Part shown: positions 9,152 through 14,254 of the stretch, in pieces
Position numbering within the stretch: position 1 is the first letter of the stretch
Layout of the letters: each line of letters opens with the position of its first letter
From: a virus
IMG/VR virus record: IMGVR_UViG_3300036979_001044
Coordinates: 1 to 64,000 of that record
Direction: 5' to 3' (one strand)
Length of the DNA: 64,000 bases
Notes under the pieces: generated by a model
The model's database searches: none
Seen by the model: the letters and a program-made list of their open reading frames with translations, nothing else
What the model was told of the DNA's origin: nothing
Position numbers and translations under genes: made by a program

Positions 9152-9670
9152 TCAAACCGAAAGACGAGGAGCCGCATCCTCCTGCGAGCGCACTACCGAT
9201 GTCTTCAGCATTTCCTTCTTCGCGCGAAAACCTTCCAGAATCGCCTGAGCCACGTTGTAGGCCTCCTCGGCCCGTTCCAGTTTCTTCTGGTGCACAAGAT
9301 ACAGCGGATCAGTCCGCATCTGCGCCTCCAGCAAGTACTGCGGCGGCTTCTTTTTCTCGTCGGCGGTACTGGCCAACGCCACGGTGAGCCCGTCTCTCCA
9401 GATCCGGTAGTCGCGTTCCTCGATCTCCCAGACCCGTTTTGCCTGAGCCGTCAACCGACCCCAGCGCATGATCTGGGCGGATACCACCTGAACCTGTTCC
9501 ACCAAACCCGCTTCCCAGATGACCAGCTCGTTCACGATTTTCCCATCAATAATGGGCCCCACTGGCGCCAAATCGCCGGTTCCAGTGACATCGACAATCA
9601 CGACCGGATTGATGAGAGCCAGCCGCTGCACGATTGCTTCAAGCGTCATGTGCTCTACTCGTTTGTTCAT
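9152..9670 (-). CDS. UvsY-like recombination mediator
   Basis: Helical protein ending EGF.AKKEML; synteny with SSB and RecA. Confidence 0.55.
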   Translation of the reverse strand: MNKRVEHMTLEAIVQRLALINPVVIVDVTGTGDLAPVGPIIDGKIVNELVIWEAGLVEQVQVVSAQIMRWGRLTAQAKRVWEIEERDYRIWRDGLTVALASTADEKKKPPQYLLEAQMRTDPLYLVHQKKLERAEEAYNVAQAILEGFRAKKEMLKTSVVRSQEDAAPRLSV

Positions 9671-9671
9671 G

Positions 9672-10097
9672 CTAAGTCTCCCCTTCTGCCAGCAACGCCG
9701 ACTCTGATCCAGGCTCCAAAGCCTCTCGATAACGCCGTCGAGCGATATCCCATTCCGTAGTCAACACGGACAGAGCCTCTCGCTCATCAGCCTCAATCAC
9801 CTGGATGGCCTGGGCGATCTCCTGTTCTACCATCTGGCAGACCCGCGTTTTATCCGCGCTGATAACCCCCATCCGATCTGCGTACTCGCTGTCTAACTGC
9901 TTTCGCGATCGGGCTAGCCATTTCTCGGTGATCTCCTTCTGCTCCTGAAACTCGCGGTGTACCACTGCGATCTTGTCCGTTCCCTTTCGCATCGAAGCCC
10001 GCTTCCGCGCCTCGATATGATCAGTAATGACCAATCTTCGCTGGGTGTAGAGTTTCTCCGCCTCACGTAATTCTTGTTCCTCTGCGGTCAATGCCAT
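9672..10097 (-). CDS. coiled-coil hypothetical protein
   Basis: SD AGGAGA; tightly packed ORF. Confidence 0.7.
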   Translation of the reverse strand: MALTAEEQELREAEKLYTQRRLVITDHIEARKRASMRKGTDKIAVVHREFQEQKEITEKWLARSRKQLDSEYADRMGVISADKTRVCQMVEQEIAQAIQVIEADEREALSVLTTEWDIARRRYREALEPGSESALLAEGET

Positions 10098-10106
10098 GAC
10101 TGTCTC

Positions 10107-12881
10107 CTACGCTTTGGGCAACTTGGTTTTGTCCGACCAACTTCGCACCGTGTAATCACCATCCACTCGAATCGGGATAGGTGAAAATTCCGAATAATCC
10201 TCCATCAGGCGCTTGACCGCGATAGCGACCTCGGGAAGCACCTCTGCCGCACAATCGAGTTGGATCTCATCGTGCACGGTAGAGATGAGCTTGGCCGGAA
10301 GTGCGCGATCCTTGAGGTAGTGGGCAATCCGGACCAGGGACTCCTTGGTCAACTCGGCAGCCGTTCCCTGAATCAAGCTGGCGATGGCCTCTCGCTCAGC
10401 CTTCCCCCGTTCGAAATTATCAGAAATGTTCATCCCCTGTACTCGCCGAGGTCTACCAAACAAATTTTGAAAATAGCCCTTCTGCCGGCGGACCTGGGCC
10501 CAGAAAGTATCCCGAAAATCAACGATACCGTGGTACCGCTCAAAAAATTTGTTGAAATAAGACTCCGCTTCTTCCCTACTCACATGCACTTGGCGAGCGA
10601 ATCCAACCGGAGAAAGTCCGTAGCTGTTCGATACCACCCGCCCCTCTACCGTAAACCGATGCCGGGGCCCCGCGTTAATCAGATCGTAGACTTTCGCCTG
10701 CTGCGATTGAGCAAATTCTCCGAACGAGTCACCAGTCGCAGATTTTCTGGAGAGTAATCCCCATCGTTGTCGGTGCGATCGAAGTCCAATCCCCGGAAAT
10801 CCGATTCTGGAAACTTCCTCAAAGCCCACCGGACAAAATGCTCCCGTGACTTGAACTGAACCTTGATCCCCCGCCCCTTGTAGTTCTTCGAGGAAACGTG
10901 CGTATCCCGCTCGCAGCGCTGCACCATAGCATCGTAACGCCCACCCAAAGTATCTGCGCGCTTGTCGTGGTATTTCCCCTTCTGACAAGCGCAAAAAGAA
11001 TGACCAGCGCGAACATTGTCTACCAAAGACCATTTGATCGCCCCGCAACTCGCGCACCGCAACTCCACCACCCGACGCAGCCTCCCATCGCCCGCTCGAA
11101 TCTTTCCCACCTGCCCGGTCAACCGAAACGAACCGCACAGGCGTTTCGCCAATCGCGCCAACAGCAAGGCGTCGGGAATAAATTGCGGATGCCGCATCCC
11201 GCAAGGTTGCGGCACCCCCGTCTCGTAAATAGACGACATGATCTGGAGTTGCCGTAATCCCGTCATAAGTCAAAACCTCCTCAACACCACGGCACACCAA
11301 ACCATCATGCTTCACCCACTCAACCCCATCCCAAAGAAGATGATGATCTTGCACGCGCTCAATTGGGACCAACCCATCCTGCTGAGTCAACACCCGCTGC
11401 CCCTCCGAGATACAAAGCCCGAAATTAATCACTTTCGCCAGCCGCCGCATAGCTTTCTCAGCGGTCCCAAAAACTTCGATCGAAGTCCGTGTGTGGATAT
11501 CCTCGCCGTTCATGTACGCGGCAACCAAGATGGGATCTTTCGTGTAGTAAGCCAAAACGCGCAATTCGATCTGCGAATAATCAAAAAATAATCGCACCCA
11601 ACCCGGTCGCCCGACCACGTAGGATCTACGGATCGACCAGGGATCAGTACCGCCTTCCTCTAAACTTTTCCCCGAGTGTTTCTTGGCCCGATCGTCATCA
11701 TCTACCGGCTGATTCTGGAAGTTTGGGCTCTTGCAGCTGAGCCTTCCAGAAGTCGTTCCCATCTGCTGAAAATCAGGGTGCAGATAATTTCTGGAATCCA
11801 GTCGATCGAGAATTGATAGGGTATAGGTATTGGCCAGCTTTTCCGCCTCACGCCAGGCGAGGATGCGCTCGATGGCTGGGTGGACGTGGGCGAACTCGGC
11901 GAGTACCTCCTTGTCCACCGCGAACTGCTTAGCCGTACCCTTGGCTCCCCCACGAGTCATTTTATGGAGTCGACAACCGAGATCCTCCAGTAACAATTTC
12001 CGGATTACCGCATCAGAGCCAAGTTCGAGCTTTCTCCCTCCAAGCAATACGGTGATCTCCGCCTCCACCCGTTGCAGCTCCAACTGCAACCGCAACCGCA
12101 ACTTGGAGAGGTACTCGACATCAATGGCGATACCCTGCTCCTCCATGTCACAGATCACGTCCAGAAGATCCATCTCGGTCTTCCAGATTCTGGCGTAGCG
12201 CTGCGAGATAGAACGATGGGTCTGCTCGTAGAAAATATGGAGTCGATTGGTAAACTCTGTATCCCCGCAGGCATATTCCCCAAGTAGCCAGATAGGGACC
12301 TGGGAGTAGCCATACTGCGCTCGGTACGCCTCCACGCCCATCCGCTGCTGCTTGGCCAGGCGGTGGACCATCTCATCTACTCGCCCCTCGCCCACTTTGG
12401 CCTGGCTCTCCCCGAGATCCTCAACTGCCCGAGTCTTCAGCGCCACATACCGATTTTCGTCATAGAGCTTGGCTGCGATCATCGTATCGTACCAGGGAGC
12501 CGCGACCACCCAACCCTCCCGGTTCGCCATGTGCTTATCAAACTTCAGATGATGGCCGATCTTGAACTGAGGACCGGCGAGCAACTTGCGGATGTCCGGG
12601 GAGACCCGTTCGATATCGAGCTGGGCCTCCCCGGTGCAGTGCCGAAAGGGCGTGTAGAAATGATGTGTCTGCCCGTCGACCGTGCCAGCCAACGCCACCC
12701 CGCAGATCCGACTCTCTCTGAACCACTCCAACCCAGAAGTCTCGGTGTCGAATACCAGGATCTTGCTCGATTCCAGAAAACGGATCATTTGCTCGAATCG
12801 ATCCCCGGTCAAAACGATATGGTAATCGGGACGACGACGTTCCAGATCGTAGTCGTTAAATCCCGTCATCTGCACCGACAT
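10107..12881 (-). CDS. polA: DNA polymerase family A (3'-5' exonuclease + polymerase), intein-containing
   Basis: FDTETSGL exo I, TTSGRLS..PNFQN, DYSQIELR motif A, R..AK..NFG-[intein]-SYG motif B, VHDEI motif C. Confidence 0.95.
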   Translation of the reverse strand: MSVQMTGFNDYDLERRRPDYHIVLTGDRFEQMIRFLESSKILVFDTETSGLEWFRESRICGVALAGTVDGQTHHFYTPFRHCTGEAQLDIERVSPDIRKLLAGPQFKIGHHLKFDKHMANREGWVVAAPWYDTMIAAKLYDENRYVALKTRAVEDLGESQAKVGEGRVDEMVHRLAKQQRMGVEAYRAQYGYSQVPIWLLGEYACGDTEFTNRLHIFYEQTHRSISQRYARIWKTEMDLLDVICDMEEQGIAIDVEYLSKLRLRLQLELQRVEAEITVLLGGRKLELGSDAVIRKLLLEDLGCRLHKMTRGGAKGTAKQFAVDKEVLAEFAHVHPAIERILAWREAEKLANTYTLSILDRLDSRNYLHPDFQQMGTTSGRLSCKSPNFQNQPVDDDDRAKKHSGKSLEEGGTDPWSIRRSYVVGRPGWVRLFFDYSQIELRVLAYYTKDPILVAAYMNGEDIHTRTSIEVFGTAEKAMRRLAKVINFGLCISEGQRVLTQQDGLVPIERVQDHHLLWDGVEWVKHDGLVCRGVEEVLTYDGITATPDHVVYLRDGGAATLRDAASAIYSRRLAVGAIGETPVRFVSVDRAGGKDSSGRWEAASGGGVAVRELRGDQMVFGRQCSRWSFFLRLSEGEIPRQARRYFGWALRCYGAALRAGYARFLEELQGAGDQGSVQVTGAFCPVGFEEVSRIGFPGIGLRSHRQRWGLLSRKSATGDSFGEFAQSQQAKVYDLINAGPRHRFTVEGRVVSNSYGLSPVGFARQVHVSREEAESYFNKFFERYHGIVDFRDTFWAQVRRQKGYFQNLFGRPRRVQGMNISDNFERGKAEREAIASLIQGTAAELTKESLVRIAHYLKDRALPAKLISTVHDEIQLDCAAEVLPEVAIAVKRLMEDYSEFSPIPIRVDGDYTVRSWSDKTKLPKA
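10626..11414 (-). mobile_element. intein (263 aa) in PolA motif B
   Basis: Begins CISEGQRV, block B TPDH, ends VYDL...VVSN followed by Ser+1; removal restores NFGLSYG. Confidence 0.92.
10679..11266 (-). CDS. HNH-type homing endonuclease nested in the +1 frame inside the intein
   Basis: Y.AM.QRC...NYKGRGI.V...F..W...DRTDNDGDYSPENLRLVTRSENLLNR is the phage HNH signature; start uncertain. Confidence 0.85.
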   Translation of the reverse strand: MTGLRQLQIMSSIYETGVPQPCGMRHPQFIPDALLLARLAKRLCGSFRLTGQVGKIRAGDGRLRRVVELRCASCGAIKWSLVDNVRAGHSFCACQKGKYHDKRADTLGGRYDAMVQRCERDTHVSSKNYKGRGIKVQFKSREHFVRWALRKFPESDFRGLDFDRTDNDGDYSPENLRLVTRSENLLNRSRRKSTI

Positions 12882-12890
12882 CCCGTACCC

Positions 12891-13150
12891 CTATCCCGGA
12901 AAAATAAGCGAAAGAGCTGGGAGAAGCGGGGAACCTCTATCGACCATCTGGGCCAGGAACTCCACCTCAGAAAAAGTCAGATTGACCGTTCCCCCGTCCT
13001 TGCTGGCCCCCTGAGAGCCAACCCGAACCCAACAATTGAGCCCTGGTATCCAGGCCACAATCTGCATGATCTGCGCCCCGCTGGGCAACACCGCCACCGG
13101 AGGAAGCCCCGGCCAGTTGACCTTGGTCAACTGCATCAAGGTCAGGTTCC
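12891..13150 (-). CDS. hypothetical protein (start uncertain, ORF open to 13511)
   Basis: Fills the gap between the DUF2924 gene and polA; C-terminal part looks globular. Confidence 0.45.
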
Positions 13151-13180
13151 ACACCCACTGCGGGCCAACTGGTTGCGCCG

Positions 13181-14254
13181 TTAGGTGCGCCCCTTGCGTC
13201 CCCCGATGATCCAAGGGAGCCGAAAGAACCTCGGCGCGCTCCAGTTGAGAATTTGCCTCGTCCCCGTAGGCATACTCCCATCCGCCCTCTTCTGCTTCGC
13301 CCGCGGGATCGTTCCCACAATCTCCCGGACTACCGAGTACAGCGTCGGATAGAGCTGGCCCTGGAACTTGTAGCCCCCCTTCAGCACCACCACCTGAAGG
13401 GTTTTGCCCTGCCAAATACGGCTGAGCTTCATTCCGGGGCGCAACTGGGCTATGAGAGCACTGCGCTCCCGCTCCCGTTGCCACCGGCTGCGATTGTACC
13501 GTGCATGCCACCGTCGCACCTCCTCCTGCGCCTTCCGCTTGCGCGACTTGTTTTCTTCCTGTGCCCTGACAGGCTGCGCAGCAGCCCGTCCCTTTCTGGC
13601 CGCTACCCTGGCACTCTGTACAGTAGCGGCCAGCTTGGGGCGGAGTTTTATCGGCTTATCCGCCCCCTTCTTCTGTGCTCCCCGAGGGAGCTTGCCCTTG
13701 GGCTCCGCCTTTGCTTTGCCCCTTCCTTTCTTCTTCGCCATTCCTGCCACCTCCTCTAGCGCCGCCGCCGCAGGCCCGGTAATCGGGATCACCTCGGCGA
13801 GAGGCGGATCTACCAGCACCTCTTTGCTATCCGACTCATAGAACTGCTTCACCTCCGTAGGCGAAAGAGCCCGATCAATGATCCTTGAATAAGTACCCAC
13901 CGCCTGTTCTGCCGCCGGCTCAACGCCTAACCGCACCAGCTTCTTCGGATCAGTTTCCGGAACCAACGGCATCGTCTGCTCTGCCGGAGGAGGAATAACC
14001 GCCGGCTTGAGGAACGGGATAATCCCCGCCGATTTCTGGAACTCCAATGCGCGCTCGATAGCCGCCGTCTTGACAGCTGTCGCCTGGACGAGCTGCTCAA
14101 CCGTGACATCTTCGCCGAGCTTACGTTGCCAGTCGACCAGCACCCCGCTCGCGAAACGCATGAGGCAGTCGTCGATCACCCCGCACCCCTGATCCACGCA
14201 AAGAGACCCGGCAACCCCCTCCCATACCTGTCCGTAACATGCTGGCATTGGCAT
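13181..14254 (-). CDS. DUF2924 (RAMA-like) domain protein with N-terminal Cys cluster and Lys-rich linker
   Basis: LRPGMKLSRIWQGK...V...GY.FQG..Y..L..V.REI.G...WS.PRFF.L. Confidence 0.75.
   Translation of the reverse strand: MPMPACYGQVWEGVAGSLCVDQGCGVIDDCLMRFASGVLVDWQRKLGEDVTVEQLVQATAVKTAAIERALEFQKSAGIIPFLKPAVIPPPAEQTMPLVPETDPKKLVRLGVEPAAEQAVGTYSRIIDRALSPTEVKQFYESDSKEVLVDPPLAEVIPITGPAAAALEEVAGMAKKKGRGKAKAEPKGKLPRGAQKKGADKPIKLRPKLAATVQSARVAARKGRAAAQPVRAQEENKSRKRKAQEEVRRWHARYNRSRWQRERERSALIAQLRPGMKLSRIWQGKTLQVVVLKGGYKFQGQLYPTLYSVVREIVGTIPRAKQKRADGSMPTGTRQILNWSAPRFFRLPWIIGGRKGRT

Follow-up and report, generated by a model that had tools for sequence, protein, structure and literature searches.

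The DNA analysed here is a 64,000-nucleotide stretch of a viral genome (positions 1 to 64,000 of IMG/VR record IMGVR_UViG_3300036979_001044; hereafter the window), which forms part of a 96.8-kb, metagenome-derived provirus record with an estimated completeness of 91%. On its minus strand lies polA, a gene for a family A DNA polymerase that is interrupted at polymerase motif B by an intein, and the middle of this intein also encodes, in the +1 frame, an HNH-family endonuclease. Comparative sequence analysis leads us to the view that the locus very probably carries a cis-splicing intein together with a separately translated, overlapping gene for an HNH homing endonuclease. The polymerase gene and the parts of the intein that are read in its frame are as follows.

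10107..12881, minus strand: polA, family A DNA polymerase with a 3'-5' exonuclease domain; a single open reading frame (ORF) of 924 codons including the intein (Pfam DNA_pol_A, E-value 7e-83, and DNA_pol_A_exo1)
11415..12881, minus strand: N-extein, PolA residues 1-489, with its C-terminus in motif B (...KVINFGL); 53% identical to the intein-free PolA of locus L085
10626..11414, minus strand: class-1 intein of 263 amino acids (PolA residues 490-752), with Cys1, TPDH at residues 56-59, a terminal Ser-Asn and a Ser at +1; its excision gives the junction found in L085
10107..10625, minus strand: C-extein, PolA residues 753-924 and the stop codon, with the N-terminus SYGLS, placed from the ORF list and the comparison with L085
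11130..11414, minus strand: N-terminal splicing domain (intein residues 1-95), conserved in the polymerase frame, in which it is read; predicted local distance difference test (pLDDT) scores of 80-96 and Foldseek matches to mini-inteins
10713..11129, minus strand: read-through linker, intein residues 96-234, predicted to be disordered (pLDDT below 50) and missing from the mini-intein relatives L107, L123, L170 and L173
10626..10712, minus strand: C-terminal splicing domain, approximately the last 29 intein residues, comprising blocks F and G (...NAGPRHRF...VVSN); pLDDT 93-95, conserved in all relatives

A first-pass annotation of this DNA, made from its letters alone, had described a 263-residue intein that is open in the polymerase frame, begins with Cys, contains TPDH and ends in Ser-Asn before a Ser. 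That description holds, as polymerase and insert are read as one ORF of 924 amino acids and the empty junction occurs in L085. The latter encodes the closest PolA found, a protein of 652 amino acids that lacks the insert and has an uninterrupted KVINFGLSYG. In the window the intein splits this motif between NFGL and SYG, and the intact motif of L085 indicates that the intein boundaries are exact and that an empty site is present in a near relative. The gene 3' of polA (window 9152-9670, minus strand) is kept in L085 (4419-4931), so that the local synteny is common to both and the intein alone differs. An insert that is tolerated without splicing was considered as an explanation and rejected, because motif B is interrupted and all of the intein hallmarks are present.

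The Cys1 nucleophile is found in the window and in every aligned relative, as well as in the other listed loci with the exception of L158, in which the boundary was misplaced. Block B (T-x-x-H) is present as T56-P-D-H59, with T56 and H59 invariant in the alignments of the relatives, and the intein ends in Asn263 followed by Ser at +1, the Asn being invariant and the +1 residue being Cys, Ser or Thr across the relatives. These splicing blocks are those of a class-1 intein with a HINT fold, from which we infer protein splicing. A penultimate His is usual in class-1 inteins, although not obligatory. The penultimate residue here is Ser262, and the first-pass annotation had contrasted the Ser-Asn ending with the usual His-Asn; His, Ser, Ala, Gly and Leu all occur at this position in the intein family, and the ending is common there rather than special to this copy.

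An AlphaFold2 model of the intein, built with 19 relatives, has pLDDT values of 80-96 at residues 1-95 and 238-263 and below 50 at residues 96-234. Its ordered part matches the solved mini-inteins NpuDnaE, Ssp DnaB and Mtu RecA with a Foldseek probability of 1.0, the best match being to NpuDnaE (4kl5, E-value 7.7e-4), and according to this model it is residues 1-95 and 238-263 alone that are predicted to fold in the polymerase frame, as a mini-intein. The intein frame has no match in Pfam, including its intein models, or in NCBIfam. Both results bear out the earlier impression that the middle of the intein does not look like a protein domain, and the only apparent constraint on the linker of ∼140 residues is that it contains no stop codon.

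The same nucleotides read in the +1 frame encode the nuclease, with the following features.

10679..11266, minus strand: nested gene for an HNH-family endonuclease, 195 codons and a TGA stop codon, in the +1 frame; matches to PHROG families (best E-value 2.5e-23) and, by profile, to I-HmuI (1u3e), AlphaFold2 mean pLDDT 83.7, and conservation in the HNH frame
11276..11282, minus strand: Shine-Dalgarno sequence GAGGAGG, 9 nucleotides 5' of the HNH start codon (ATG, 11264..11266); in the intein frame it codes for part of V-E-E-V
10985..11056, minus strand: cluster of four Cys (Cys 71, 74, 92 and 94), a putative zinc site, kept in 45-48 of the 48 relatives having this region; weak resemblance to the Cys4 sites of PacI
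10706..10780, minus strand: His-Me finger core, HNH residues 163-187 (D163, R164, Y171, N175 and N187), aligned to DH...N...N of I-HmuI and DR...Y...N of PacI

The HNH protein matches PHROG HNH families with E-values from 2.5e-23 (phrog_374, residues 64-192) to 1e-12, and it has no match in NCBIfam. Its AlphaFold2 model exceeds a pLDDT of 85 across most of residues 30-190. A family profile built from 58 members matches the homing endonuclease I-HmuI with an E-value of 4e-4 and PacI weakly (E-value 0.21). The +1-frame HNH ORF with Cys pairs reported in the first-pass annotation is therefore substantiated, with the zinc site remaining putative, and its estimate of ∼590 dual-coding nucleotides agrees with the 588 that we measured. 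The ORF does have its own stop codon, as had been stated, but this codon does not precede the C-terminal splicing block: it lies 53 nucleotides ahead of the intein end, and the final ∼8 HNH codons extend into the first strand of that block.

Chance does not explain the open polymerase frame across the HNH gene. Of 20,000 synonymous recodings of the HNH protein, made with codons drawn from window usage or with its own codons permuted, none left the polymerase frame open, 10.2 stop codons being expected. The layout also recurs widely among relatives. A profile scan of IMG/VR with the HNH protein found 503 relatives, and 30 of the best 80 of these lie 3' of the N-terminal part of an intein; both intein ends were located in 29 of them, and every one of these 29 nested relatives has its HNH in the +1 frame and an open host frame. 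The remaining ∼50 of the best 80 are free-standing genes, none of which has the corresponding frame open. A second scan with the intein yielded 331 relatives, the best 80 of which comprise 74 large inteins with a +1 HNH, four mini-inteins, two decayed inteins and none with the HNH in frame. The decayed inteins are 184 amino acids long, and the mini-inteins (L107, L123, L170 and L173) are 120-150 amino acids long and are missing exactly the HNH part. Isolate phages with the +1 layout include Streptococcus phages Javan113 and Javan255, APSE-1, Caulobacter phage GB2A, Gardnerella phage AB1 and Shewanella phage SFCi1. A search of longer HNH-containing proteins (343-2000 amino acids), in itself weak evidence, gave five matches and no in-frame fusion to PolA or an intein. 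In Pseudomonas phage MR14 (L093) and EBPR siphovirus 2 (L095), the HNH of the PolA intein is in the +2 (-1) frame, and these two group together on the HNH tree.

The pattern of substitutions separates the two frames. In six close pairs of relatives that could be aligned without gaps, substitutions in the N-terminal splicing domain peak at the third codon position of the polymerase frame (152 of 268), and those in the HNH core peak at the first polymerase position (480 of 836), which corresponds to the wobble position of the HNH frame. Amino acid identity in the HNH core of these pairs is 0.55-0.97 in the HNH frame versus 0.25-0.85 in the polymerase frame. A comparison of the window with its five closest relatives (L096-L100) over 130-132 core codons gives identities of 0.60-0.67 and 0.31-0.39, respectively, with most differences at the HNH third position, and the comparison with L003 agrees. 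We conclude from these alignments that selection acts on the HNH frame in the intein middle, whereas in the splicing blocks it acts on the polymerase frame. The middle of the intein is thus an HNH gene under purifying selection over which the polymerase frame simply stays open. A frame-specific test of selection in homologs, which the first-pass annotation had called for, thus comes out in favor of the nested gene.

The signals preceding the nested gene suggest how it could be expressed. The HNH start codon sits within the Tyr-Asp codons directly before block B, and in 48 of the 74 large relatives the earliest usable start is the equivalent ATG (intein nucleotide 145), preceded by a Shine-Dalgarno-like motif. 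A second group of relatives has a Shine-Dalgarno sequence formed from H-E-V codons and an ATG directly after TPDH. The +1 frame contains a stop codon two codons 5' of the window ATG (offset 142 vs. 148), and similar stops are seen in relatives (136/139 vs. 145). The conserved Shine-Dalgarno sequence and ATG, together with the +1-frame stop just upstream, argue for internal initiation rather than frameshifting, and they support a nuclease that would be made as a separate product on the polA mRNA, with homing uncoupled from splicing. The first-pass annotation had proposed a separate nuclease made from an internal start or by a frameshift; its first alternative is supported, and its second appears very improbable in view of the upstream stop and the conserved start signals. 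No group I or II intron is indicated by Rfam, which gave no match at E-values up to 1 in the interval 9800..13200. Within the HNH ORF, ∼60-80 nucleotides from its start, a GC-rich hairpin of 7 bp with a TTTATT tract behind it (window 11183-11204, minus strand) resembles a terminator; a simple scan found four such sites, versus 1.6 expected in shuffled sequences.

The active site of the nuclease appears to be of an unusual type. R164, Y171 and N175 are invariant in all 58 relatives, position 163 is Asp or Glu in every one of them, and N187 is present in 57. Residues D163, N175 and N187 match the positions of the metal-binding Asp/Asn and the structural Asn in the I-HmuI alignment, and Y171 falls opposite the Tyr in the DR...Y...N stretch of PacI, a sequence match that is marginal (E-value 0.21). 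PacI is a His-Me finger nuclease, the PacI-like enzymes forming group 20 of the classification in PMC5714182, in which a Tyr takes the role of the missing His (PMC5714182, PMC4081073), and it has Cys4 zinc sites (PMC4081073). In an exhaustive VIA structural search with the HNH model, PacI (3m7k) ranked second (Z 6.0, root-mean-square deviation 2.8 Å, 75 residues), tied with an unrelated axonemal chain that scored Z 6.4. We therefore predict that the HNH is a His-less, PacI-like variant with an invariant Tyr where a classical HNH has its His base, PacI-like denoting here a likeness in mechanism rather than membership of the same family. PacI (PDB 3ldy, 3m7k) and the window HNH would have in common the missing His base, a Tyr in its role, the Asp/Asn ligands and a Cys4 arrangement. 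They differ in that PacI is a stand-alone restriction enzyme of 142 amino acids, whereas the window HNH is nested in an intein.

Several comparisons point to mobility of the intein and its nested gene. The intein N-terminus of the window is 61% identical to that of L003, versus 24% for the N-extein, and related cassettes occupy three nearby positions of motif B (NFGL|xYG, AELA|CGYGG and AKx|xNFG) in very different PolA lineages. In L067 (3-1634) and L070, the same cassette of intein and +1 HNH resides in an SF2 helicase gene (Pfam Helicase_C) instead of polA, so the unit has moved between host genes. Linkage to an intein at an active-site motif, a sporadic distribution and the incongruence of intein and extein together form a signature of homing.

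Free-standing members of the nested HNH family also occur next to polA. In L027 (1479-3618) an intein-free polA with an intact motif B is directly followed by such a gene, and in L081 one lies just 5' of a polA that is likewise without an intein; both look like the free-living stage of the nuclease beside its probable target gene. A quick HNH tree, in which many branches are weakly supported, places the nested HNHs in at least two groups, one of them within the free-standing diversity near L027 and L081. This tree, the free-standing genes adjoining polA and the mini-intein relatives without the HNH part make it likely that the arrangement arose when a mini-intein captured free-standing HNH genes associated with polA.

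Taken together, we propose that the insert is a selfish element of two genes within a phage polA. The first, in the polymerase frame, would be the class-1 intein, consisting of splicing domains 1-95 and ∼238-263 joined by the disordered linker of ∼140 residues; it would splice out after translation and so restore polymerase motif B, rescuing the polymerase. The second, in the +1 frame of the linker, would encode an HNH nuclease of the free-standing type, with a Cys4 cluster and a PacI-like active site with Asp/Asn metal ligands. To judge by the conserved signals, the polA mRNA would yield this nuclease as an independent translation product, initiated at the Shine-Dalgarno sequence and ATG that lie inside the N-terminal splicing domain. 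If it acts as known homing endonucleases do, it would cut the intein-less polA of co-infecting relatives, and repair would copy the whole cassette. The element may have arisen by insertion into a mini-intein of a free-standing HNH gene whose family is also found beside intein-less polA.

A number of observations weigh against this proposal. The Ser262 in place of a penultimate His may slow Asn cyclisation, yet it is common in the family. A scan of 10400..11700 for sigma-70 promoters found no site and hence lends no support to a separate internal transcript, and initiation inside an ORF that is itself being translated may be inefficient. Where I-HmuI has its catalytic His (DH), the window and all 58 relatives have an Arg (Arg164, DR). 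The Pfam model HNH_3 scores 17.7 bits on the HNH protein, under its cut-off of 24.8, Foldseek found no PDB match to the HNH model with an E-value under 0.27, and the fold match to PacI is modest and supportive only. The window HNH also deviates at K130, which is Gly in 56 of the 58 relatives, and at S189, which is Arg in 54. These two departures from near-invariant positions would fit a nested HNH that is a silent relic, in a splicing-competent mini-intein with a junk linker that has lost homing, as would the existence of mini and decayed relatives (four and two of the best 80 intein relatives) and the lack of a second HNH copy or paralog in the 96.8-kb record. We nevertheless regard a relic as unlikely: the ORF is intact over 195 codons and retains its Shine-Dalgarno sequence and ATG, the protein keeps the four Cys and each of the seven invariant residues, differences from the closest relatives still track the HNH codon phase, and the AlphaFold2 model is confident.

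The remaining alternatives concern the data, the mode of translation and the beneficiary of the nuclease. Two compensating assembly or sequencing indels could disguise an ordinary intein with an in-frame HNH, and the record is indeed a metagenome-derived provirus contig, but such an artefact would leave stop codons in the polymerase frame, which is free of them, the HNH ORF comes with a Shine-Dalgarno sequence, ATG and stop of its own, and the +1 layout is shared by every nested HNH relative with placed ends, by 76 of the best 80 intein relatives (74 intact and two decayed) and by isolate phages, with no in-frame case. This explanation, which the first-pass annotation had named as one that would overturn its reading, is excluded by the occurrence of the layout in more than 100 independent loci, and we give it practically no weight. 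Both frames overlap on one mRNA, so a fusion of the HNH to the polymerase/intein frame by programmed +1 ribosomal frameshifting is conceivable, but we find it very improbable given the +1-frame stop ahead of the ATG in the window and in relatives, the alternative Shine-Dalgarno and ATG position that some relatives use after TPDH and the free-standing homologs, which are independent genes; what is conserved is the Shine-Dalgarno sequence with the ATG, and no conserved slippery site was seen, although no systematic search for one was made. Finally, the nuclease could be expressed and yet serve mainly the phage, through marker exclusion acting on the polA of competitors or through other DNA processing, rather than intein homing. 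Free-standing relatives are common in phages (∼50 of the best 80 HNH loci), some of them beside polA, and cassettes at three motif-B positions and in a helicase gene imply a flexible choice of target. Against this, the nuclease gene is strictly linked to an intein in a conserved active-site motif, the distribution is sporadic, and intein and extein are incongruent, and exclusion and homing could in any case operate together; a nuclease serving chiefly the phage therefore seems improbable to us. An overlapping, separately translated homing endonuclease gene within a cis-splicing intein is the reading we retain.

An endonuclease encoded out of frame within an intein is not new in kind, being described in preprints from 2025-26 and annotated as a layout in APSE-1 P45/P46. 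In inteins of actinobacteriophages, Gosselin, Arsenault and Gogarten found an EndoVII-like nuclease in frame 3, in addition to antisense LAGLIDADG and VSR forms, and HNH endonucleases in frame only (bioRxiv 10.1101/2025.01.02.630785). Those inteins resemble the one studied here in having an out-of-frame endonuclease between the splicing blocks, an open extein frame and an in-frame middle without structure, and the same origin, invasion of an intein by a free-standing endonuclease gene, was proposed for them. They differ in that their nuclease is EndoVII-like and in frame 3, whereas ours is predicted to be a His-less, PacI-like HNH in the +1 frame at motif B of a family A polymerase. The cyanobacterial dnaX intein has an out-of-frame LAGLIDADG endonuclease, Shine-Dalgarno motifs and frame-dependent dN/dS (Phillips, DeSimone and Gogarten, bioRxiv 10.64898/2026.09.14.751524), and according to its citation in that preprint it was first noted by Gorbalenya in 1998. 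It shares with the window intein the overlapping frames, the disordered middle, the start motifs, the frame-dependent selection, the coexistence of mini-intein and empty alleles and a proposed origin by capture; it differs in having a LAGLIDADG nuclease, in residing in a cellular gene and in having its ORF designated +2, as opposed to an HNH in a phage polA.

The closest annotated parallel is in phage APSE-1 (NC_000935.1, L090), whose record annotates an HNH endonuclease, P46, within the polymerase gene P45. P45 is likewise a family A polymerase, the N-terminal ∼66 residues of its intein are 42% identical to those of the window, and an HNH of the same family is in the +1 frame (profile E-value 2.4e-71), although this HNH belongs to another sub-clade and the polymerase to another PolA lineage. 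The PolA intein of APSE was known already, and APSE phages have variably lost it (PMC7313666). We found no discussion of P46 as the out-of-frame homing endonuclease of this intein in the literature covered, which did not include the 1999 APSE-1 genome paper. A further parallel is the ShiLan domain, a hidden out-of-frame HNH within a phage DNA methylase (Arsenault, Gosselin and Gogarten 2025, PMC11855218). Like the nested gene, it is an HNH of ∼195 amino acids with flanking zinc fingers, located out of frame in an uninterrupted host ORF. Unlike the window HNH, which is surrounded by a complete intein, it has no splicing domain, and the insert stays in the host protein. The “fractured genes” with split inteins (Dassa et al. 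2009, as described in bioRxiv 10.1101/2025.01.02.630785) also have an endonuclease gene of the free-standing type at the endonuclease position that is translated separately, but in that arrangement host gene and intein are divided between two ORFs whose products splice in trans, whereas here the frame is open and splicing would be in cis.

In the literature covered we did not find an out-of-frame HNH in an intein, its PacI-like site, start signals within a splicing domain, or the out-of-frame state as the rule of a family. We lean towards the broader view that the PolA motif-B inteins are one large family (at least 331 IMG/VR relatives) in which the out-of-frame arrangement is the sole full-length state, almost always +1 and with no in-frame form seen among the full-length members examined, in which ribosome-binding site and start codon lie in a conserved K/E-E-V...Y-D-G stretch, and in which a His-less, Tyr-dependent, PacI-like HNH was captured at least two times from free-standing genes adjoining polA. 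The suggestion of the first-pass annotation that the layout is rare rather than new is accordingly half upheld, with prior description confirmed by the recent preprints and rarity contradicted by its being the rule in this family, which is itself common in phages.

The window adds a well-supported example to the newly recognized inteins with a separate, overlapping gene for a homing nuclease. It indicates that for inteins of family A polymerases the out-of-frame layout is the norm and not an oddity, and that the nested gene bears its own conserved ribosome-binding site within a splicing domain and encodes a nuclease without the catalytic His. If the broader view is correct, these inteins would constitute the largest and best-sampled overlapping two-gene drive of an intein and a free-standing homing endonuclease, and a natural test of evolution in overlapping frames. 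The hundreds of family variants offer a test bed for frame sharing and for the partnership between nuclease and intein, and the family is possibly a source of compact site-specific nucleases. The nested HNH is unannotated in the records of Javan113, Javan255, GB2A, AB1, MR14, SFCi1 and EBPR siphovirus 2 (L001, L002 and L091-L095) and, among the isolate-phage records inspected, is annotated only in APSE-1. Gene callers evidently miss nested HNH genes, and phage annotations will therefore under-count homing endonucleases.

Two relatives have unusual HNH arrangements. L028 (2308-4187) is rearranged, with the HNH frame fused to an unrelated upstream ORF (438 amino acids) and the other frame retaining just the C-terminal part of the intein and the C-terminal half of polA; it is probably a broken copy. 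Protein P0001 (352 amino acids, on a 1.3-kb contig) is 56% identical to the window HNH and, like it, has an N-terminal RQLQIMSS stretch that overlaps intein block B. It also carries a C-terminal extension of ∼200 amino acids composed of repeated helical modules.

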